Shown here in pieces: positions 5,693-36,221 of a DNA stretch of 36,221 nucleotides. The notes beneath the pieces are model-generated. The model was not told where the DNA came from. It did not search any database and was given only the letters and a program-made list of their open reading frames with translations. How positions within the stretch are numbered: the stretch's first letter is position 1; every line of letters begins with the position of its first letter. Source of the DNA: a virus; the IMG/VR virus record IMGVR_UViG_3300045988_173666, one strand, 5' to 3'. The position numbers and the translations under genes were made by a program.

Positions 5693-5706
5693 CGACACGT
5701 GCCCGA
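5693..5706 (+). promoter_or_regulatory. Conserved box CGACACGTGCCCGA, copy 2
   Basis: Identical to 595-608. It lies about 125 nt upstream of the scaffold gene start. Confidence 0.45.
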
Positions 5707-5830
5707 CCATCCAAGCTGCGCGGGCACCCGGCGGCAACGGGGTGCGGCGCGGCAGCGGCGGCAACAGCTGCAAGTACCGAAGCGCGCAGAGAAGCGCGGC
5801 AACCAAACACCGGAAAGGACTGGTACGGAC

Positions 5831-6361
5831 ATGGGAGCACAGCAACCGCAGGGGCAGCAGACCGACCCGCAGGAGGGCCAGCAGCCCGCAGGGGGCGCCG
5901 GCGACGGCACCCAGGCACAGCAGCCCCAGGCGCCGGCGAACGAGCCGGCAGGCGGCACCACGGACCCGCAGGGCGGCGATGGCGGCGCGACCGTCAACCG
6001 CCACAAGTACGAGCGCGACCTGAAGGCCAAGGACGACGAGATCGAGAAGCTGCGCGCGCAGCTCGACGAGGCGGCCAAGACCAAGGAGGGGCGCGAGGAG
6101 CTGCAGAAGAAGCTCGACGAGATGAAGGCGTCCATGGCGAGCGAGAAGGCGGCCTACCGCCTGGAGATCGCCGGGTGCAAGAACGTCAAGGCGGCCAAGG
6201 CGCTGCTGGACGACTACGAGGGCGACGTGGACAAGCTGAAGGAAGCCTGCCCGTACCTGTTCGAGGAAACCAAGAAGACCGGCTCCACGGGGCTGAAGCC
6301 CGTGGGCGCGGCCAAGGACGACGACGCGGCGCTCGACCGCGCCTTCGGCCTGAAGAAGTAG
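5831..6361 (+). CDS. Scaffolding protein (GP20-like), Q/P-rich N-terminus and coiled coil
   Basis: ATG at 5831 after GGAAAGGA. The product reads MGAQQPQGQQ...RHKYERDLKAKDDEIEKLRAQLDEAAKTKEGREELQKKLDEMK and sits immediately upstream of the capsid gene. Confidence 0.7.
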   Translation: MGAQQPQGQQTDPQEGQQPAGGAGDGTQAQQPQAPANEPAGGTTDPQGGDGGATVNRHKYERDLKAKDDEIEKLRAQLDEAAKTKEGREELQKKLDEMKASMASEKAAYRLEIAGCKNVKAAKALLDDYEGDVDKLKEACPYLFEETKKTGSTGLKPVGAAKDDDAALDRAFGLKK

Positions 6362-8886: not shown

Positions 8887-9597
8887 ATGGATATCGGTTT
8901 CGCGCTGAACTACCAGCACGTGGTCGAGGTCGACACCACCCCGGACGGCGACAAGCGCCACTGGGCATGGGTCGGCCCCGGCATCTCCAACATCGGCAAG
9001 GACAACAGCGAGAGCACGAGCGAGGACGCCTACTACAACGGCGGCGGCAACACCAAGACCGACGTCACCGGCGTGAGCGCCAAGTACAGCGTCGAGGGCC
9101 ACCGCCTGATCGGCGACCCGTTCCAGGACTACGTGGCCTCCATCGAGGACGGCATCGGCGCCGAGCGCGAGACGACCTACCGCGTCACCGACCCGACCGG
9201 CAAGTGCATCGAGGCGCCCTGCACCGTCCTCGACATCGCGGCCAACGGCCCCAACGGCGCCGCCAACGAGAAGACGAGCTTCAAGTGCTCGCTGTCCCGC
9301 TCCGGCGTGGCCACCGTCGTGACCCCCGCCGCCGGCACCCTGCTGCCCGAGTCCGTCAACGTGGCGCAGGAGGTGACCGTGGGCATCAACAAGACCGCGG
9401 CCGCCATCAAGCCCTCCGTGCTGCCCGAGGGCGCGTCCACGCGCTGCCTGTTCGCCATCGAGGACACCGGCATCGCCCGCGTGGCCGCCGACGGCACCGT
9501 GACCGGCGTCAAGGCCGGCAAGACCCGCCTGGCCGTCAAGTGCGCGGCCAAGCCGTCCGTCTCCACCGTCGTGGACGTGACCGTCTCCGCGTCCTAG
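8887..9597 (+). CDS. Major tail protein with a C-terminal Ig-like (Big_2-type) domain
   Basis: 236 aa. The C-terminal part ...IEDTGIARVAADGTVTGVKAGKTRLAVKCAAKPSVSTVVDVTV is a typical Big_2 motif. A strong terminator follows. Confidence 0.75.
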   Translation: MDIGFALNYQHVVEVDTTPDGDKRHWAWVGPGISNIGKDNSESTSEDAYYNGGGNTKTDVTGVSAKYSVEGHRLIGDPFQDYVASIEDGIGAERETTYRVTDPTGKCIEAPCTVLDIAANGPNGAANEKTSFKCSLSRSGVATVVTPAAGTLLPESVNVAQEVTVGINKTAAAIKPSVLPEGASTRCLFAIEDTGIARVAADGTVTGVKAGKTRLAVKCAAKPSVSTVVDVTVSAS

Positions 9598-9629
9598 GCG
9601 CGGGGCGACAGCCGGGGGAACATCTGCCG

Positions 9630-9674
9630 AGGAGGCCGGGGCTACGCGCTGCAGCCCCGGCCTCCTTTCTCTTT
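9630..9674 (+). terminator. Rho-independent terminator after the major tail gene
   Basis: AGGAGGCCGGGGCT (9630-9643) pairs perfectly with AGCCCCGGCCTCCT (9653-9666). The loop is 9 nt and the tail is TTCTCTTT. Confidence 0.8.
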
Positions 9675-9707
9675 GAACGCAGCGCACGATGGGAAGGCAG
9701 CGCAACC

Positions 9708-10169
9708 ATGAAGACACTGAAGGTAAGGAAGTCGTTCGAGCGCTTCGAGGTCGAGGTCGGCGACGAGACGGTGGAGTGCGCCATCGACTGCACCGACGGC
9801 ACCGTCAACGCGTTGGCGGCCAGGTGCATGAAGGCGCGCCAGCAGGCGCTCGCGCTCGACACGCTGAAGGAGAAGACGTTCGACCGCAAGAAGCTGAACA
9901 AGCTGTCCGAGGACATGGCCGCCATCATCGGCCCCATCATCGTCGAGGGCATCGGCGAGGAGTCCTACGACGCCATCCTCACGGCGTGCGGCGACGGCGT
10001 GAAGCTGAAGCCGGCGCAGTGCAACCTCGTCATGGTCCAGGTATTCGCCACCGTGTGCCAGGCGATCTTCGACCGCCTGAACGACGTGAAGCAGAGCAAG
10101 GCAGCGCACTACCTACAGGACGTGGTGGCAGATGCGCAGAAGCCTGACGACGAGAAGCGGGACCGTTAA
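9708..10169 (+). CDS. Tail assembly chaperone (gpG-position protein)
   Basis: ATG at 9708 after GGGAAGG. 153 aa, between the major tail and tape measure genes. Confidence 0.6.
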   Translation: MKTLKVRKSFERFEVEVGDETVECAIDCTDGTVNALAARCMKARQQALALDTLKEKTFDRKKLNKLSEDMAAIIGPIIVEGIGEESYDAILTACGDGVKLKPAQCNLVMVQVFATVCQAIFDRLNDVKQSKAAHYLQDVVADAQKPDDEKRDR

Positions 10170-13213: not shown

Positions 13214-15628
13214 ATGGCGAAGGGATACTTCGGAGAGAAGGCCGGCCCCGGCGCGCACATGCGGGCGTACGTGGAGTGCAAGACCACGGCGCAGGAGGAG
13301 GGGCGCGCCTACGTCCAGTACAAGCGCAGCATCCGCGTGGACGACGCCAACTTCGGCGGCACCATCGTCGACCGCAACTGGGGCGGCCAGGTGCAGCTGT
13401 ACGGCCCCGGGTGGTACGGCGATTCCGGATGGGTCAACTACGGATGGGTCAACTACGGGGAGCAGGCCGTCATCACGGCCACCATCTCCTACCTGAGCTG
13501 GTCCGGCGTCCACTACAGCTCGTCCGTGACCGCCCGGTACAGCCCGGACGTCCCCACGTGGCTGCCCAACGCGGTGAGCCAGTGCAGCGCCGTGCTGGAC
13601 GGCGGCAAGATCAAGGTCAAGTGGAGGAACAACAACACCACCACGCGCCCCTACGCCGGCATCTACGTCGACGTCTCGGTGGACGGCGGGGACTTCACAC
13701 TCCACAAGGACGTCGAAGGCGGGGACACGGAGTGCGAGTACGCGTGCGAGCCCAACCGCGTGTACGAGTTCCGCGTGCTGCCGCACAACGGGGCGGGCAA
13801 CGCCAACTCGCACACCTACACGGGCAAGGTCTGCACGCTGCCGGCACCGCCCACGGACGTCAAGGCGGCCCGCCTGAGCGATACCGAGAACGCCGTCACG
13901 TTCGGGCACGGCTCGGGCAACGACGGCCTGTACCTCGCCCACGACGTGCAGCGCCAGATGGACGGCGGCGCGTGGTCCGACTTCGCCGCGGTCGAGCCCG
14001 CCGGCACCCGGTGCCCCGACCGCTCGACGAGCGCGAACCACTCGTGGCGCTACCGCGTCCGCAGCCGCAACTCGGCCGGCGCGTCCGACTGGGTGTACAC
14101 GGAGACCGTCTACAACACGCCAGCCGCGCCCGGCAAGATCGCCATGGCGCGCGTCTCGAACACCCGCGTGCGCGGCACGTTCGAGAACCCGGCGAACACG
14201 GCCACGTCCGCCGAGATAGAGCGCAGCCAGGATATGGAGCGGTGGACGGCGGTGCGCACCGTCGAGGGCCACGTGGCGTCGTTCGAGGACGACCCCGGCG
14301 GCGGCACGTGGTACTACCGCGTCCGCAACGCCCGCGGCGGGCTGAGGAGCGCCTGGACGGCCAGCAGCGGCATCGTGACCATCTGCGCGCCGGCGGCGCC
14401 CACCGTCACCTCGCCGTCCTCCTCGCAGGTCATCCCCAAGACGCAGGCCACCATCTCCGTCACGTGGCGCCACAACCCCATCGACGGCTCCGCCCAGACG
14501 GCAGCCCAGTGGCGCTGGAGCACCGACGGCAAGACCTGGACGACCGTCGACGTCTCCGGCAAGGCGTCGGGCGCGACGCTGGCCAACTCCTTCGCGGTCA
14601 ACACCCGCCTGTCCGTGCAGGTGCGCACCAGGGGCGCCCATGCCGACTTCGGCCCGTGGTCGCCCGCCGTGGCCACCTACGTGCGCCAGGTGCCCACGCT
14701 GTCCATCGAGGAGCCGGCCGACGGCTTCACGGTCGAGACCGTGCCCGTGCACGTCCGCGTGCGCTACAGCGACCCGAGCGGCACCATGGCCGCCGGCACG
14801 CTCACCATCTGCGACGCGGCGGGCACCGCCGTCTACAGCCGCGACCTCGCCGCCGGGCTGGAGTTCGACATACCGGCCTCCGAGTGGCTGCCGGCCGACG
14901 GCGCCGCGTACCGGCTGGCCGCCACCGCCCGCTCGTCCTCGACGCTGCAGGGCTCGGCCGAGCGCTCCGTCTCGGTGCGCTACAGCCTGCCGGCGCCCGC
15001 CATCGTCGACGCCGTGCCGGACCCGGCGACCGGCCGCGTGGCCATCACGGTGCACGCGGGCGTCGAGGACGGCGCCGCGCCCATGGAGTCGGCGAGCGTC
15101 TGGCGCAACGTCGGCGGCGTGCGCACGCTGCTGGCCGACGGCCTGCACGACGGCGCGGAGCTCACGGACGACTATGCGCCGCTCAACACGGACTACGCCT
15201 ACGAGACCGCCAGCATAGCCGCGTCCGGCGCCGTGCGCGAGACGAGGTTCCCGGGGCACATCGACTCGGGCCACGTGTTCGTCTACTGGTCCGGCGGCAT
15301 CGCCCGCGGCAGGTACAACCCCGCCGACGAGATCGCCGTCGAGCCGGAGTTCTCCACGTTCCGCCTGGCCGGCAGGCGCTACCCGGTGGGCGTGTCCTCC
15401 GACCGCGTGGCCGAGAAGCACACGGCGTCCGTGACGCTCAACAGCCGCGAGGAGGCGCTGGCGTTCTACCGCGCCGTGTGCAGCGGCGAGCGGCTGGTGA
15501 TGAAGACGCTGTACGGCTTCGTCTTCCCGTTCATGGCCACGGCCAAGCTGGCGCCGTCGCTGGGCAACGCAGAGCGCCAATGGAGCGTGAGCCTGGAGGC
15601 CACGAGGCTGGACGGTGAGGGCCTATGA
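13214..15628 (+). CDS. Distal-tail-position minor tail protein with multiple FN3-like repeats
   Basis: 804 aa, directly after the tape measure. It has repeated segments of about 90 aa with W...YRVRxxN-type FN3 signatures, such as HSWRYRVRSRNSAGASDW and TWYYRVRNARGGLRSAW. Confidence 0.6.
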   Translation: MAKGYFGEKAGPGAHMRAYVECKTTAQEEGRAYVQYKRSIRVDDANFGGTIVDRNWGGQVQLYGPGWYGDSGWVNYGWVNYGEQAVITATISYLSWSGVHYSSSVTARYSPDVPTWLPNAVSQCSAVLDGGKIKVKWRNNNTTTRPYAGIYVDVSVDGGDFTLHKDVEGGDTECEYACEPNRVYEFRVLPHNGAGNANSHTYTGKVCTLPAPPTDVKAARLSDTENAVTFGHGSGNDGLYLAHDVQRQMDGGAWSDFAAVEPAGTRCPDRSTSANHSWRYRVRSRNSAGASDWVYTETVYNTPAAPGKIAMARVSNTRVRGTFENPANTATSAEIERSQDMERWTAVRTVEGHVASFEDDPGGGTWYYRVRNARGGLRSAWTASSGIVTICAPAAPTVTSPSSSQVIPKTQATISVTWRHNPIDGSAQTAAQWRWSTDGKTWTTVDVSGKASGATLANSFAVNTRLSVQVRTRGAHADFGPWSPAVATYVRQVPTLSIEEPADGFTVETVPVHVRVRYSDPSGTMAAGTLTICDAAGTAVYSRDLAAGLEFDIPASEWLPADGAAYRLAATARSSSTLQGSAERSVSVRYSLPAPAIVDAVPDPATGRVAITVHAGVEDGAAPMESASVWRNVGGVRTLLADGLHDGAELTDDYAPLNTDYAYETASIAASGAVRETRFPGHIDSGHVFVYWSGGIARGRYNPADEIAVEPEFSTFRLAGRRYPVGVSSDRVAEKHTASVTLNSREEALAFYRAVCSGERLVMKTLYGFVFPFMATAKLAPSLGNAERQWSVSLEATRLDGEGL
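13426..13455 (+). repeat. Perfect 15-bp tandem duplication (cggatgggtcaacta x2), in frame (GWVNY-GWVNY)
   Basis: Read directly from the sequence: 13426-13440 equals 13441-13455. Confidence 0.9.
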
Positions 15629-16743
15629 GGTGGCACGGCAACCGCTACCACGAGCACTGGACGTTCCGGCGCGTCAAGTGGCCGGGGATGGAGGAGGCGG
15701 AGGACTACGGCCAGATCACCGGCGGCAAGTCCTCCGAGAGCCAGTTCAAGGAGCTGAAGGCCACCGGCTCCATCGACTACGAGGGCTCCACGGTGCCCGA
15801 CGAGGACGACGCCGTGCGCGTGTACTACGGCTTCACCGACGACGCCGGCGAGAGCTGGGAGGGGCCCGTGGTGACCGGCTTTTTGGAGCTGGGCGAGACC
15901 GACCTGGACGGCTCGCTGGTGAGCGGCAGCGCCGACCTGTCCGGCATGCTCACCGTGGCGGCCTCCACCGGGCCCGGCTACCCGCTCACGCTGCCCGCCG
16001 GCACGCCCACCGTGGACACCGCCGCCGGGTTCCTTCGCGCGCTCGGTCTCGTCGTCAACGCCGCGCCGTCGTCCCACAGGCTGAGCGGCGCGCACACGTT
16101 CGAGCGCGACGAGAAGTGGCTGGGCATAGCCAACTGGCTGCTGTCCGCCGCCGACTTCGGCAGCGCGACCACCGACGCGTGGGGCGCCGTCCAGATGCAG
16201 CCCTACGTCGAGCCCACGGAGCGCGCGCCGTCGTGGACGTTCCGCGACGACGAGACCAGCGTGTTCTTCCCCTCCGTCACGGTGAGGGACAACCGAGCCG
16301 ACACGCCCAACGTGGTGCGCCTGTGGTACGAGGACGACAGCGTGGGGCTGTACGCCGAGGCGCGCAACGACGACCCGCGCAGCGCGGCCTCGACCGTCAC
16401 GCGCCGCCGCGAGCGCCAGCTGGACGACGAGGTGACCGAGCTGTCCGGCGACACGCCCGAGAAGATGCTGGAGGCGCTGAAGGCCGCCGCGCGCAAGAGG
16501 CTGCTGGACAACTCCACCCGCATCGACTACGTGGAGGTGCACGGCCTGTTCATCCCGTCGCGCGTCGGCGAGTGCGGGCTGCTCGACTACCGCGAGGCCG
16601 GCGTCGAGCAGCTGGGCGGCATCACCGCCAAGGACGTCGAGTTCGGGCTGGGCGGCGAGACGACGCACACCATGCGGCGCCTGCTGCGCCCGGACTTCAA
16701 GGTGACGACTGCTGGAGAGGTGGTGTGGAGGAATGACGCCTAG
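15625..16743 (+). CDS. Tal-like / baseplate hub-like minor structural protein
   Basis: The ATG overlaps the upstream stop (ATGA). 372 aa, in the position after the Dit-like gene. Confidence 0.5.
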   Translation: MRWHGNRYHEHWTFRRVKWPGMEEAEDYGQITGGKSSESQFKELKATGSIDYEGSTVPDEDDAVRVYYGFTDDAGESWEGPVVTGFLELGETDLDGSLVSGSADLSGMLTVAASTGPGYPLTLPAGTPTVDTAAGFLRALGLVVNAAPSSHRLSGAHTFERDEKWLGIANWLLSAADFGSATTDAWGAVQMQPYVEPTERAPSWTFRDDETSVFFPSVTVRDNRADTPNVVRLWYEDDSVGLYAEARNDDPRSAASTVTRRRERQLDDEVTELSGDTPEKMLEALKAAARKRLLDNSTRIDYVEVHGLFIPSRVGECGLLDYREAGVEQLGGITAKDVEFGLGGETTHTMRRLLRPDFKVTTAGEVVWRNDA

Positions 16744-16995: not shown

Positions 16996-17685
16996 ATGCG
17001 CGAGATACTCACGCTGGACCTGCAGAAGTCCAGCACCCAGTTCATGCCAGTCATCGCGCTGAGGGCGCGCCGCGGCGACTCGCGGAGCCTCCAGCGCACG
17101 TTCCAGATCATGGACGACGGCGTGGCGCTGGACCTCACGGACTGCACCGTCTCGTTCATGGCTGAGAACGCCGGCGGCTTCCCCATCATGGAGGAGGTGG
17201 TCGACAAGGGGCAGGGCGGCCAGTTCACCTACCGCTTCCCCGACGCCGTCGCGGCCGTGCGCGGCTCCGTGACCATGGCCTACTTCCGCATCGTCGGCCG
17301 CGACTTCACGGGCTCCACCAACAGCCTGCGCATCGAGGTGCTGGACAACGTGGACCTCACGGACGCCGTGACCGGCGCCTACGTGCCCATGCTGGACCGC
17401 ATCATCGAGCAGTCGACCGAGATGGCCGCCAACGCCGACGAGATCACCCGCCAGGCCACCGCCGCCATCAACGCCTGCACGTCCATCACGGAGACCGCGA
17501 CGGCGCAGGAGCAGGCGCGAGTGGCGAAGGAGGCGGAGCGCGTGACGGCCGAGGCCGAGCGCGCCAGCAACTACAGCCAGAAGATGGCCGAGTGGGAGCG
17601 CGACGTGCTGGCGCTCACCAACGGCCTGTGCGTCAACAGCAAGGGCCAGCTTTGCGTGGCCGTGAGAGTAAAGAGGAAGGGCTAG
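16996..17685 (+). CDS. BppU-like baseplate upper protein (N-terminal Ig-like domain plus coiled coil)
   Basis: ATG at 16996 after GAGAGAAAGGAA. The N-terminus reads MREILTLDLQKSS...DLTDCTVSFMAEN...GSVTMAYFRIVG and resembles a BppU N-terminal domain. A coiled coil follows. Confidence 0.5.
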   Translation: MREILTLDLQKSSTQFMPVIALRARRGDSRSLQRTFQIMDDGVALDLTDCTVSFMAENAGGFPIMEEVVDKGQGGQFTYRFPDAVAAVRGSVTMAYFRIVGRDFTGSTNSLRIEVLDNVDLTDAVTGAYVPMLDRIIEQSTEMAANADEITRQATAAINACTSITETATAQEQARVAKEAERVTAEAERASNYSQKMAEWERDVLALTNGLCVNSKGQLCVAVRVKRKG

Positions 17686-17687
17686 AC

Positions 17688-18905
17688 ATGGCAGAGAACG
17701 ACAGCATCGTCGAGTACCCGGTCATCACCGACGACACGGGCCGCGCCATCGCGGGCGCGCTGCAGGCGATGGCGCACGACAAGGTGGCGGCGCTGAAGAC
17801 GGACTGGGACGGCCTGGCGCGCATGAGCCGCGACGGCCTGGGGCGCTACATGCTCGGCATCGGCGACCAGATTACCTCAAAGTGGACCGACCCGGACGGC
17901 GGCACCGCCTACGACGTGCCCAACGACGTGTGCCACTTCCCCGCCGAGCTGGAACTGCAGGACGGCGAGAAGCTGCCCGGCACCATCCTGCAGTGGCACT
18001 ACACCCTGCCCTTCGGCACGCAGTTCGACCAGAAGGAGGCCTTCTGGTACTGCGAGGCCGCGCTGGCCGCGGGCACCTACAACCTGACCATGGGCGCCTC
18101 GTGGGGCACCAACGTGGTCAAGGGCAAGACCTACCAGTTCACGCTCGCCAAGGACGTGCCGAAGGGCGGCGTGCTGGCCGGCATGGAGTACGCACCGGAC
18201 CGCGACCCGGGCACGTGGCAGGTCAAGTCCTACAAGACCGTGAGCGACGCCGACCCCATCGAGACGGTGGGCATGAGCGAGGGTGCGCAGGGCACGAGCC
18301 TGGGCACCATCGGCACCAAGCCGGACGGCAACATGAACAGCATCTACCGCTGCGCCTACGGCTACAACCGCTGGAGCCAGTCCGCGCTGCGCCAGTACCT
18401 CAACGGCAAGGGCACGAACTGGTGGAAGCCGCAGAACAAGTGGGACCGCCCGCCGGAGTACGTCGGCAAGCGCGGCTTCCTGGACGGCATCCCCGAGGCC
18501 GAGCTGGCCGTCATGCGCCGCGTGAAGGTCGTCACCGGCGTGCCCTACTGCGAGGAGGGCACCGACAGCGAGCCGGTGCTGGACACCACCTACGACCTCG
18601 TGTTCCTGCCGAGCATGGAGGAGCACTTCCTGGCGCTCGGCGAGTCCGGCATGAAGGGCAAGGAGGGCGAGGCGTGGGAGTACTGGGCGCGCGTCGCGCA
18701 GTCCCCGACGCCGCTGGCGCTGTGGCAGACGTGGCCGCAGCTGATCACCTACGCCATCAACGGCAAGACCAGTCCACAGGGCGTCTGGGCGCGTTCCGCT
18801 TATCGCTACTACGGCCACTACACGTTCTGCGTGAACACGTCGGGCACCGTCCGCGGCAACCACGCGCAGAACGCGCTGCGCTGTGCTCCCGCCCGCGCCA
18901 TCTAG
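17688..18905 (+). CDS. DGR target protein; putative receptor-binding tail fibre protein with a C-terminal C-type-lectin-fold-like variable region
   Basis: The ATG at 17688 follows AAGAGGAAGG and lies 2 nt after the BppU-like stop. 405 aa. The C-terminus ...GVWARSAYRYYGHYTFCVNTSGTVRGNHAQNALRCAPARAI carries the VR. Confidence 0.9.
   Translation: MAENDSIVEYPVITDDTGRAIAGALQAMAHDKVAALKTDWDGLARMSRDGLGRYMLGIGDQITSKWTDPDGGTAYDVPNDVCHFPAELELQDGEKLPGTILQWHYTLPFGTQFDQKEAFWYCEAALAAGTYNLTMGASWGTNVVKGKTYQFTLAKDVPKGGVLAGMEYAPDRDPGTWQVKSYKTVSDADPIETVGMSEGAQGTSLGTIGTKPDGNMNSIYRCAYGYNRWSQSALRQYLNGKGTNWWKPQNKWDRPPEYVGKRGFLDGIPEAELAVMRRVKVVTGVPYCEEGTDSEPVLDTTYDLVFLPSMEEHFLALGESGMKGKEGEAWEYWARVAQSPTPLALWQTWPQLITYAINGKTSPQGVWARSAYRYYGHYTFCVNTSGTVRGNHAQNALRCAPARAI
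18775..18899 (+). repeat. DGR variable repeat (VR)
   Basis: Aligns without gaps to TR 19394..19518 at an offset of 619 nt. 105 of 125 positions are identical. Nineteen of the 20 differences are at TR adenines. It ends 4 nt before the stop codon. Confidence 0.92.
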
Positions 18906-18921
18906 CCATCGATGCCAATCC

Positions 18922-18943
18922 GGGGCGGGCCACCGCCCGCCCC
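18922..18943 (+). promoter_or_regulatory. GC hairpin downstream of the VR (candidate DGR target-recognition hairpin/cruciform)
   Basis: GGGGCGGGC (18922-18930), loop CACC, GCCCGCCCC (18935-18943) form a perfect 9-bp stem. It lies 23 nt past the end of VR homology and has no T-tract. Confidence 0.55.
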
Positions 18944-18964
18944 CTGTTCGAAAAGGAGGCCGCT

Positions 18965-19375
18965 TTGTCGGTACCTAAAAGGTTGAGGAAGAAAAGCAAG
19001 CTCGAAGTGTTCGTGAACGCCTGCGACCTCGTGGAGTACGTGCTGAAGATCACGGCGAACGAGAAGGTGTTCAAGCCGGAGCAGTCCGCCGTCACGGACA
19101 AGATAAAGGCGGCGGCGCTCGACATAGCGCGCTTCATATGGTGCGCCAACAACATCCGCGTGCGCCAGGACGCGCAGCTGTACGCCGAGCGGCGCCGCCT
19201 GCAGGACATGGCCATGACGTGCTGCCGCGAGCTGCTTTTCCTCATCGACCTCGCATGGGACGTCATGCACCTGTCTGAGCGCCGAGCCGTCTACTGGGTC
19301 GGCAAGACAATGGACCTGCGAGACGAGATAGCCGCATGGAGGGCATCCGACGCCAAGAGATACGGGCGTCTGTGA
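18965..19375 (+). CDS. avd: Accessory variability determinant (Avd)-like protein
   Basis: The TTG at 18965 lies 6 nt after AAGGAGG. 136 aa, basic and helical in character (...LVEYVLKITANEKVFKPEQ...ALDIARFIWCANNIRV...RRRLQDMAMTCCRELLFLIDLAWDV...). It sits between the target gene and the TR. Confidence 0.75.
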   Translation: MSVPKRLRKKSKLEVFVNACDLVEYVLKITANEKVFKPEQSAVTDKIKAAALDIARFIWCANNIRVRQDAQLYAERRRLQDMAMTCCRELLFLIDLAWDVMHLSERRAVYWVGKTMDLRDEIAAWRASDAKRYGRL

Positions 19376-19393
19376 TAGCCGGGGCCGCGGCTG

Positions 19394-19518
19394 AACAGAA
19401 CGTCTGGACGCGTTCCGCTAATCGCAACAACGGCAACAACACGTTCATCGTGAACACGTCGGGCAACGTCAACAACAACAACGCGCAGAACGCGCTGCGC
19501 TGTGCTCCCGACCGAACC
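19394..19518 (+). repeat. DGR template repeat (TR)
   Basis: It is adenine- and AAC-rich and reads QNVWTRSANRNNGNNTFIVNTSGNVNNNNAQNALRCAPDRT in the VR frame. It begins 19 nt after the avd stop. Confidence 0.92.
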
Positions 19519-19719
19519 GGCGAAAGCCCCACCGAAGCCTGCGGCGCAGCCGCGGAGCGGGGCGAAACCGGCGCGGGGAGCCGCGACCCCGAGCCCGAGA
19601 GGGCCGAACAACGCCGGGGCGACGCCGACGCGGCTGGAACGCGGGCGGCTATCGCGCGCCCCGGACCCACACCCGAACTGGAACCCGGCGAGCTGAACGG
19701 CGTCGTCGGGTTCCTCGCT
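19519..19719 (+). other. TR-RT spacer (probable non-coding part of the DGR RNA)
   Basis: GC-rich and low-complexity when translated. It lies between the TR and the first conserved RT residues. Assignment is by analogy with the BPP-1 TR-Sp RNA. Confidence 0.4.
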
Positions 19720-20715
19720 TTGAGGGAGAGCGCGAAGAAGTGCCGGCGCGGCGTCATATGGAAGGACAGCGCCGCCAGCTACATGCTGAACCTGTCAGAG
19801 CGCACGCTGGCCATGAGCCGCAAGCTGCAGGCGGGCACGTTCAGGTGCGGGCCCACGCGGGAGTTCTACGTGACGAGGCCCAAGCGCCGCACCATCGTGA
19901 GCGTGGGCTTCGCCGACCGCGTGTTCCAGCGCAGCCTCAACGACAACAGCATCTACCCCCGCATGGTGCGCGGCTTCATATCGGACAACGCGGCATGCCG
20001 GAAGGGCAAGGGCACCGACTACGCCCGCGAGCGCTTGAAGGAGTTCATGCGCCGCCACTACCGCAAGAACGGGCCGAACGGCTGGGTATGCCAGATGGAC
20101 GTGGCGGGCTACTACCCGAACATGCGGCACGAGACGGCCGAGGCGGCGTTCGCCCGTAAGCTGCCGCCCGAGATCATGGCCATGGCCATGGCGGTCATGC
20201 GGAACCAGTACCCGGGCGAGGTCGGCTACAACCCGGGCAGCCAGATGATACAGATAGCCGGCATCAGCGTGCTGGACCCGCTGGACCACATGGCCAAGGA
20301 CCTCATGGGAATCAGGCACTACATCAGGTACATGGACGACGCCGTGGCCATCCTGCCGACGCGCGAGGAGGCCGAGAGAGCCATGGCGGCCTTCGGCGAC
20401 ACGCTGCATAACCTAGGCTTCGAGCTGAACCCCAAGAAGTCACGCGTGCACCCGCTGCGCGACGGCATCGAGTTCCTGGGCTTCGACTTCCACCTGACCG
20501 ACACGGGGAAGGCCCTCATGTTCGTCAAGCCGTCGAACGTCAAGGAGATGCACCGCCGTATCCGCCGCATGGCGCGGCTGGCGCAGACGGGCAAGATGTA
20601 CCGCTCCGAGGTGGACGGGAGCTACCAGGGCTGGCGCGACCACGCTTCCAAGGGTGACAGCTTCGGGCTGATCAGGCGCTCCGACGCCTGGTACAAGGGA
20701 CTATGGAAGGAGTAG
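19720..20715 (+). CDS. DGR-type reverse transcriptase
   Basis: The RT motifs are ...PKRRTIVSVGFADRVFQRSL..., ...CQMDVAGYYPNM..., ...YNPGSQMIQIAG..., HYIRYMDDAVAIL (YMDD box) and ...IEFLGFDF. The start is uncertain: candidates are CTG 19693, TTG 19720 and ATG 19783. The stop is TAG at 20713-20715. Confidence 0.88.
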   Translation: MRESAKKCRRGVIWKDSAASYMLNLSERTLAMSRKLQAGTFRCGPTREFYVTRPKRRTIVSVGFADRVFQRSLNDNSIYPRMVRGFISDNAACRKGKGTDYARERLKEFMRRHYRKNGPNGWVCQMDVAGYYPNMRHETAEAAFARKLPPEIMAMAMAVMRNQYPGEVGYNPGSQMIQIAGISVLDPLDHMAKDLMGIRHYIRYMDDAVAILPTREEAERAMAAFGDTLHNLGFELNPKKSRVHPLRDGIEFLGFDFHLTDTGKALMFVKPSNVKEMHRRIRRMARLAQTGKMYRSEVDGSYQGWRDHASKGDSFGLIRRSDAWYKGLWKE

Positions 20716-35725: not shown

Positions 35726-36221
35726 ATGGGAATCATCTGCGAGGCCTGCGGGCGCGACATCGACGCCCTGGGGCAGGACAACATGGGAGTGGACGCGCCG
35801 CTGTGCGAGGACTGCTGGGGCGAGCAGCAGAACCACGCGGTGGCCGCGCTGAAGCGCGAGAACGCCAGCCTGCGCCGCAGGAACGAGTCGCTGGACAAGA
35901 GCCGCAAGGCGCTGGGGCTTCAGCTGGCGGAAGCCAACCGAAAGCTGCGCGAGGATGGCGCCCGTCCCGAGACGACGAAGTTCGCGGCGGGCGCGGTCAA
36001 GGACGCGCGCCTGAGCATCGAGACGGTCTACAAGGTGAGCCGCGAGCGAGCCCTGGCGCTCACGAAGCTGGACGAGTGCGAGATGTGGCTGGGGCGCTGC
36101 GAGCCCAAGGAGACGGCGGCGCCGACGCTCGAGGGCGCGGCCCAGGACGCCGCCATGCCGTGCCTAAAGGACGACGGGGCGCACAGCTTCGCGATGCCCG
36201 ACGTGAGCGTCGAGATAAACG
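35726..36221 (+). CDS. 5' portion of the junction-spanning gene: zinc-ribbon (CEAC...CEDC) plus coiled-coil protein, hypothetical
   Basis: Hand-translated. The ATG at 35726 follows GAAGGAGAA. The product begins MGIICEACGRDIDALGQDNMGVDAPLCEDCWGEQQNHAVAALKRENASLRRRNESLDKSRKAL... . It is open to the window end and continues in frame into 3..218. Confidence 0.6.
   Translation, partial: MGIICEACGRDIDALGQDNMGVDAPLCEDCWGEQQNHAVAALKRENASLRRRNESLDKSRKALGLQLAEANRKLREDGARPETTKFAAGAVKDARLSIETVYKVSRERALALTKLDECEMWLGRCEPKETAAPTLEGAAQDAAMPCLKDDGAHSFAMPDVSVEIN
36081..36221. repeat. Terminal direct repeat, copy 2 (identical to 1..141)
   Basis: Same 141-nt string as 1..141. This is the usual signature of an assembly overlap in a circular or circularly permuted molecule. 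Confidence 0.9.

Follow-up and report, generated by a model that had tools for sequence, protein, structure and literature searches.

Does the end of the tail module of a Collinsella phage carry a diversity-generating retroelement (DGR) that still rewrites a tail protein, or the relics of one? The locus lies in the IMG/VR virus record IMGVR_UViG_3300045988_173666, the whole 36,221-nt stretch of which is hereafter called the window. The opening 141 nt of the window are repeated at 36081-36221, and from this terminal direct overlap we therefore take the contig to be a circularly closed phage genome of 36,080 bp, with a GC content of 70%. The locus comprises a target gene whose 3' end holds a variable repeat (VR), followed by avd, a template repeat (TR) and a reverse transcriptase (RT) gene (Table 1). 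A sequence-only reading of the window had proposed this layout, in the order known from Bordetella phage BPP-1, and the map of open reading frames (ORFs) together with the sequence confirmed its coordinates. Adenine-specific divergence between TR and VR, an RT of DGR type, Avd, distinct initiation of mutagenic homing sites in VR (IMH) and TR (IMH*), a hairpin and the codon design of the TR together make this a complete DGR cassette. We consider it very likely that it is a canonical, cis-acting DGR of a temperate Collinsella siphovirus, which rewrites the tip of the last tail protein.

Table 1. Features of the cassette and of the gene preceding it (positions in the window)
Feature	Position	Strand	Description
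DGR target gene	17688..18905	+	405 aa; C-terminal DUF6273 domain carries the VR
VR	18775..18899	+	hypervariable core ~18777-18881; constant GC-rich IMH-like 3' end ~18879-18899 (CGCTGTGCTCCCGCCCGCGCC)
Candidate hairpin/cruciform	18922..18943	+	9-bp all-GC stem GGGGCGGGC / GCCCGCCCC, 4-nt loop CACC
avd	18965..19375	+	136 aa; TTG start; Shine-Dalgarno AAGGAGG 5 nt upstream
TR	19394..19518	+	37 adenines, 12 AAC codons; IMH*-like 3' end 19498-19518 (CGCTGTGCTCCCGACCGAACC)
TR-RT spacer	19519..19692	+	non-coding substitution pattern
DGR RT	19693..20715	+	start CTG 19693 or TTG 19720; RVT_1; RYMDDAVAIL
BppU_N-domain baseplate protein	16996..17685	+	229 aa in the ENA copy of the contig (L001 gene call); directly upstream of the target

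Adenine-specific repeats and their natural variation

A direct-repeat search of the window returned one outstanding repeat, at an offset of 619 nt. VR and TR align without gaps over 125 nt, with 105 identities and 20 mismatches, 19 of which fall at TR adenines (7 A>C, 7 A>G and 5 A>T). Mismatches thus affect 19 of the 37 A sites versus one of the 88 non-A sites (Fisher exact p=2e-11). The adenine enrichment put forward by the sequence-only reading holds in this recomputed alignment; of the 19 mismatches that it had taken as the hallmark of mutagenesis, three or four are boundary or IMH differences. The hypervariable core, 18780-18861, contains 15 of the A-mismatches. The mismatch at 18775 occupies an edge position, in a Pro codon that is constant among relatives. 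Those at 18892, 18896 and 18897 are shared by every close relative, and because they are fixed in this way, we read them as differences between IMH and IMH* rather than as footprints of mutagenesis.

The sole non-A mismatch pairs T19448 of the TR with G18829 of the VR, in a codon that reads ATC in the window's TR and TGC in its VR. The corresponding codon is AAC in the TR of locus L014 and TAC in that of L013, and TGC can be obtained from AAC through two A substitutions. The simplest reading of these sequences is that the TR changed, or that recombination occurred, after the last homing at this codon. Mutagenesis at a non-A position was considered and set aside in favour of a change on the TR side, given the AAC or TAC codons of other TRs.

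The VR corresponds to the last 42 codons of the target ORF. TR adenines are distributed 17/16/1 over the first, second and third codon positions, no A substitution in the TR generates a stop codon, and the 32 core adenines give access to ~10^19 possible proteins. When both strands of the window were searched end to end with the non-A positions of the TR, no further copy was retrieved; only the VR and the TR itself matched, and the element is therefore devoid of a remote second target in this genome.

Natural variation follows the same pattern. Among 35 homologs of the target at 73-93% identity, ~360 residues are almost constant and the last 44 columns are hypervariable, with a mean entropy of 0.97 versus 0.23 elsewhere. 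VR variants in this set differ just where the TR has AAC or another A-bearing codon, so that hypervariability is confined to A-templated codons. We also collected 13 related loci from IMG/VR, ENA, Logan and NCBI, each with its own TR/VR pair. Pooled over these loci, mismatches are found at 194 of 418 TR adenines (~46%) and at 6 of 953 other positions (p=1e-107).

The TR cores of L002, L007 and L016 are identical to that of the window (105/105); in their flanks, L007 and L016 match the window at 97-99.6% identity. The VR cores all differ from the window's VR, with 85/105 and 87/105 identities for L007/L016 and a range of 82-87/105 over the three loci. An identical TR core, differing VRs and such flanks therefore argue for very recent homing in this lineage. 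A constant template combined with variable targets in near-identical genomes is, as judged from these sequences, the population signature of an active DGR.

A scan of 185,579 species genomes yielded target relatives at 38 loci. In ~27 of the 38, from Collinsella to Clostridia, the C-terminal end of the target gene is repeated at an offset of ~610-680 nt, and the majority of these loci have all or nearly all of their mismatches at adenines of the downstream copy. The loci with no detectable TR/VR repeat are mostly short and truncated. Two loci, L056 (Lachnospira eligens) and L061, harbour a target homolog with no TR detected within 3 kb. Over the series L028-L064, the VR-to-TR offset of ~610-680 nt is kept from 70%-GC Collinsella to low-GC prophages of Lachnospiraceae, Blautia, Roseburia and Oscillospiraceae, at target identities of 30-46%; in the metagenome protein database, RT homologs of the next tier are ~52-57% identical. 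These comparisons indicate transfer of the target-avd-TR-RT cassette among gut phages of different phyla.

In every close relative, the last variable codon is followed by a GC-rich IMH, CCCGCCCGCGCC, in the VR, with the counterpart CCCGACCGAACC in the TR. The CAPARAI tail encoded by the 3' end of the VR is constant in the 35 homologs. In known DGRs, the direction of mutagenic homing and its 3' boundary depend on the difference between IMH in the VR and IMH* in the TR (PMC5758913). The pair found here is as expected for IMH and IMH*, and it would mark the putative limit of mutagenesis.

The candidate hairpin begins 22 nt past the end of the TR/VR homology and is not followed by a T-run. A hairpin follows the VR stop codon in 13 of the 13 loci examined, with stem sequences that are unrelated in distant loci. 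GC-rich inverted repeats downstream of IMH have been described for about one third of DGRs and for most phage DGRs, and the target hairpins of phage DGRs have stems of 7-10 bp rich in GC, 4-nt loops of sequence GRNA and distances of 4-34 bp (PMC3240598). The hairpin of the window fits that description in stem, loop length and distance. At ~5258-5280 of L011, the post-VR hairpin has the window's stem and the loop GGTG, the reverse complement of CACC, as if it had been inverted.

Reverse transcriptase, Avd and spacer

The RT has Pfam RVT_1 as its only domain, with neither a maturase nor an endonuclease domain, and it matches phrog_1423 (E=6e-74). Its best match in the PDB is BPP-1 Brt (8ub7_A, E=1.4e-17, versus 1e-8 for group II maturases). 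A tblastn search with the RT against deposited phages gave 89 records, most of which are known DGR carriers; they include nd4/nd12, FP_Brigit, FP_Toutatis, Lelie, Roseburia phage Shimadzu, and Bordetella, Bacteroides and Vibrio phages. In all the related loci, the RT is paired with an A-biased TR/VR. Taken together, these comparisons support the membership of the RT in the DGR clade. The YMDD box announced by the sequence-only reading is intact (Table 1), and the equivalent of Arg74 is conserved.

The GSQ that had been regarded as a DGR-type motif proved to be something else. In an ungapped alignment, VGYNPGSQMIQ of the RT faces VGIPIGSLTSQ of Brt, which places this GSQ on Brt G182-S183-L184. 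At the position of the signature heptad [I/V/L]GxxxSQ, the RT reads PGSQMIQ, so that Pro stands for Ile181 of Brt and Ile for Ser186. For the Brt sequence in these alignments, the stretch verified by HMMER alignment is residues 46-315. The heptad is present in ~90% of DGR RTs, with an almost invariant '[ILV]G', and Ile181 of Brt promotes adenine mutagenesis; published work takes the motif for a common marker rather than a strict requirement (PMC3521204, PMC7826257). Related DGR RTs have the canonical form, namely IGNQTSQ in nd12, IGNQSSQ in nd4, LGSETSQ in Shimadzu and LGYQTSQ in Brigit and Lelie. All 120 of the 120 closest RT homologs, from Collinsella and Clostridia prophages, read [PA]G[SN]Q[LMI][IV]Q, and PGSQMIQ thus appears as a trait of a subclade that is not special to the window. 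We retain the RT among DGR RTs despite its motif because it is combined with an A-specific TR/VR pair, which is the functional definition of these elements. The PGSQxIQ subclade leaves A-only footprints, with ~46% of TR adenines substituted. One may speculate that it has taken a mechanistically distinct route to adenine-selective infidelity, with a different deoxynucleoside triphosphate pocket, a proposal that we regard as rather doubtful.

The sequence-only reading had placed the RT gene at about 19720..20715. The end stands, as the frame closes at 20715, and the start is left between CTG 19693 and TTG 19720. Past the TR, the latter is the sole canonical start in frame. In homologs, the conserved ES.KKC motif is preceded by 11-19 residues, and the codon corresponding to CTG 19693 of the window is ATG in L014. 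A 459-aa ORF starting at ATG 19336 was rejected as the true RT gene: the spacer is devoid of codon-position bias, and stop codons separate TR and RT in the lower-GC loci L017 and L021. This long ORF, which reads through both the TR and the spacer, is probably an artefact of the 70% GC content.

The artefact has consequences for databases. Gene callers systematically annotate the RT as an ORF of 455-459 aa that swallows the TR and the spacer. Clustering of proteins at 90% then lumps together RT, target and Avd by way of the TR-encoded N-terminus of the long ORF. Cluster sizes of 2061 and 815 were accordingly discounted as a measure of target hypervariability, since these clusters mix the target, the 459-aa RT ORF and Avd.

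Variable columns of the spacer are spread evenly over the codon positions (20/20/21), versus 109/84/146 in the body of the RT, and the spacer core is 85% identical to that of L004, where avd and the RT are at 75-77%. The spacer probably belongs to the DGR RNA as its non-coding 3' portion, an analogue of Sp in BPP-1. RNAalifold identified seven pairs with compensatory changes, mostly owed to one sequence, and the folding z-score is only -1.5, so that a structured spacer RNA is no more than suggested. An Rfam scan of 18700-20000 gave no family match, group II intron RNA included.

That the gene between target and TR is avd-like, as first proposed, was borne out by its match to phrog_3206, 'Avd protein of DGR' (E=3e-13), and by its AlphaFold2 model, a four-helix bundle with a predicted local distance difference test (pLDDT) score of 91. 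Foldseek aligned this model to 2gsc/2rld of the Avd-like family with template modelling (TM) scores of 0.82-0.88, and to bAvd (4dwl, and chains C/E of 8ub7) with TM scores of 0.73-0.78 (prob ~0.99). By sequence, Avd had no match in Pfam and no meaningful match in the PDB, with either a single sequence or a profile.

By analogy with BPP-1, a complex of RT and Avd would bind a transcript that holds the TR and the downstream spacer, and reverse transcription would then proceed with misincorporation opposite template adenines only. The resulting cDNA would replace the VR at the 3' end of the target gene, in a direction set by the GC-rich IMH of the VR as opposed to IMH* of the TR, with probable assistance from the GC hairpin. 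The predicted outcome is that ~17 codons, among which 12 are AAC, are randomized within the final ~40 residues of the DUF6273 (C-type-lectin-like) domain, for up to ~10^19 variants.

The target protein, its phage and alternative readings

The sequence-only reading had suggested that the scaffold of the target might be novel. It is uncharacterized and not novel: the protein has a Pfam DUF6273 domain at residues 223-394 (E=1e-8, 35.5 bits for a gathering cut-off of 23.5), matches phrog_19280 (E=1e-30) and has >300 homologs, many of them full length, including proteins at 40-46% identity in Blautia, Roseburia and Lachnospiraceae prophages (30-46% when prophages of other hosts are counted as well). 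No full-length homolog was found in deposited cultured phages, the matches being to uncultured 'Bacteriophage sp.' entries (e.g. MT835491, 42%). The AlphaFold2 model (pLDDT 91.5, predicted TM score 0.88) comprises helices at residues 15-55, with lower confidence, a beta-rich middle part at ~60-210 and the DUF6273 domain at ~215-405, with the VR in the last strands of the latter. This two-domain architecture recurs in many DUF6273 proteins of uncultured gut siphoviruses (Foldseek, TM 0.67 over 356-385 columns). DUF6273 has been described as a C-type lectin (CLec)-like domain of DGR targets with the VR at its C-terminus (PMC10743442, PMC11792537), and the CLec assignment of the target is made by analogy with that literature.

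The target is the last gene of the tail module. The protein encoded directly upstream matches Pfam BppU_N (E=2e-16) and PHROG families of minor tail and virion structural proteins. It is preceded by PhageMin_Tail and by proteins of 804, 372 and 81 aa. Of the Dit-like, Tal-like and BppU-like genes initially named ahead of the target, the last was thus substantiated; the Dit and Tal labels are positional, as the 804-aa (13214-15628) and 372-aa (15625-16743) proteins at these positions have no match to Dit or Tal models in Pfam, NCBIfam and PHROG and match unnamed or generic PHROGs only. Their counterpart in the prophage of Coriobacteriaceae bacterium CHKCI002 has a faint fn3 match. In TP901-1-type phages, BppU anchors the receptor-binding protein (RBP). 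Because the target is the last tail gene and directly follows BppU_N, we consider it likely, from gene position, that it is the RBP and that its variation diversifies binding to host receptors.

An active DGR might instead diversify a decoration or adhesion protein similar to Hoc or tentaclins, for instance for mucus binding, or a protein acting in the lysogen. The weak match of the target to phrog_10993, 'Hoc-like head decoration' (E=3e-7), would fit such a role, as would the presence of DUF6273 in tentaclins and in the N-terminal domain of a bacterial immunoglobulin A (IgA) peptidase. The only significant fold match in the PDB is precisely that domain, from T. ramosa (9qa6). Sequence searches of the PDB with the target, single or as a profile, gave nothing meaningful, and no similarity in sequence or structure to BppL or another characterized RBP was detected. 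The model nevertheless lacks the Ig-like repeats of Hoc or tentaclins, and the position at the end of the tail module, right after BppU_N, is kept in CHKCI002 and other prophages. We therefore rate this alternative as unlikely, and a tail-tip RBP as the better description of the target.

Could the cassette have been active once and be inert in the window, with the TR/VR differences as relics? The non-A mismatch implies that the TR side has changed since homing last took place, the start codon of the RT is ambiguous, and decayed relatives exist, with loss of TR adenines (L015/L012), a 20-nt deletion of IMH* (L006) or deletion remnants (L002/L003). Everything that homing would call for is nonetheless intact in the window, namely the YMDD box, the 37 adenines of the TR, the hairpin, both IMH and IMH*, and an avd ORF preceded by a strong Shine-Dalgarno sequence. 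In addition, the TR core is that of three other genomes while the VRs all differ, which implies very recent homing. A fossil is thus very unlikely.

The decayed relatives deserve a description of their own. L002 (4992-13955 of ENA k115_52164, a 243-kb host contig) and L003 hold a ~9-kb integrated remnant of the same prophage between host genes. In L002, the order is serine recombinase, repressor, small ORFs, a chimeric ORF of 292 aa (9063-9941), Avd, TR, RT and lysis genes. The chimeric protein has a ParB-like N-terminus, and its last ~120 aa correspond to the C-terminus of the target, with the VR. The latter differs from the intact TR of L002 by 15-16 mismatches, depending on the boundaries used, all at adenines. 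Remnants from which the whole packaging and structural module is deleted were found in at least four contigs. The TRs of L015 (~5724-5850) and L012 (~5699-5760) are short of many adenines and resemble VRs (...TATCGCTACTGCGGCTCCTGC... in L015), and three former A positions of L012 are identical in TR and VR. This suggests conversion of TR by VR, or homing of cDNA into the TR, events that would freeze the system. In L006 (~2000-2060, compared with L004:11811-11830), a 20-nt deletion takes out the TR's IMH* region and interrupts the long ORF in what is otherwise the CHKCI002 prophage; the coverage of this contig is 2.5x, and the deletion could reflect a defective element or an assembly error.

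The last alternative, an ordinary duplication or recombination hotspot beside an unrelated group II intron, retron or defence RT, might draw on the match of the RT to the NCBIfam group II RT/maturase model (E=1.6e-21, 77 bits for a cut-off of 300) and on weak matches to PADLOC models of defence-associated RTs, and its probability is negligible: it is refuted by the pooled A-specificity, not expected from duplication and drift, by the affinity to Brt, the closest RT of solved structure, by RT homologs in DGR phages, by the Rfam null result, by the presence of Avd and by RVT_1 as sole domain, with group II, defence and retron-type scores far below family cut-offs.

Several points weigh against a canonical, active DGR directed at receptor binding. 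The hairpin loop is CACC and not GRNA, the RT departs from the signature heptad, and it has no clear canonical start upstream of its conserved N-terminus. The TGC codon of the VR is unreachable from the ATC of the present TR and needs TR drift or recombination. Activity of the window's copy at present is deduced from comparisons between genomes. Foldseek with the target did not retrieve Mtd or TvpA, and returned only faint matches to the CD23/CD94 lectins and to DUF1566. Finally, the receptor-binding role is proposed from gene position, and DUF6273 is known from Hoc-like/tentaclin decoration proteins and a bacterial IgA peptidase as well.

The genome encodes an endolysin and a large serine integrase of 503 aa downstream of the cassette. 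Target relatives at 82-94% identity were found in Collinsella genomes only, cultured C. aerofaciens strains included, and the integrated prophage of CHKCI002 carries a 73%-identical relative. These Collinsella-only close relatives and the CHKCI002 prophage therefore identify the carrier as a temperate Collinsella siphovirus. The description of a high-GC temperate phage was accurate, in view of its GC content, integrase and prophage relatives. A megablast search with 12.5 kb against deposited phages gave no match.

Comparison with known systems

The architecture, the DUF6273 target, the Coriobacteriia host class and the likely role in tail-protein diversification are already published. This locus adds a well-resolved DGR example for Collinsella, an abundant gut actinobacterium with few characterized phages, and cultured lysogens (C. 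aerofaciens TM115-146 and J1101004_170508_A10, and Collinsella sp. CLA-ER-H10) make the system open to experiment. Its further added value is modest, in that a non-canonical RT motif marks a whole subclade and that the RT is systematically misannotated as a 459-aa protein. If the PGSQxIQ enzymes did embody a distinct solution to infidelity, the system, with its conserved spacer RNA, would be a useful second model beside BPP-1.

The cassette shares with BPP-1 the gene order (mtd-avd-TR-brt in the latter), the VR at the 3' end of the target gene and the TR between avd and the RT gene, followed by a non-coding spacer. Also in common are A-only differences between TR and VR, a GC-rich IMH with a non-identical IMH*, and a GC hairpin with a 4-nt loop 3' of the VR. 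Avd is predicted to form the same four-helix bundle, and among solved structures Brt is nearest to the RT. Unlike Mtd, to which it has no sequence or Foldseek similarity, the target is a DUF6273 protein. Motif 4 of the RT is PGSQMIQ and the loop is CACC, compared with IGSLTSQ and GAAA in BPP-1. BPP-1 is a podovirus, whereas the carrier is a siphovirus with a BppU-type baseplate and a Gram-positive, high-GC actinobacterial host.

Closer to the host, prophage DGRs of Eggerthella lenta (clades 3, 4, 7 and 10) are organized as mtd-avd-TR-RT, with a TR of ~130 bp upstream of the RT gene, and VR changes were demonstrated experimentally for DSM2243phi4 (PMC8778435). By their described layout, these elements resemble ours in the order mtd-avd-TR-RT, in being carried by temperate phages and in the Coriobacteriia host class; they differ in host genus, which is Collinsella here.

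DGRs with DUF6273 targets have been reported in the Faecalibacterium phages Lelie, Roos, Pioen and CP11 and for target2 of nd4/nd12 (PMC11792537, PMC10743442). In these phages of gut Firmicutes, unlike in the window, the RTs keep the canonical [IL]GxxxSQ. Those RTs are 31-36% identical to that of the window, and as in the Collinsella phage, the VR lies at the C-terminus of the DUF6273 domain.

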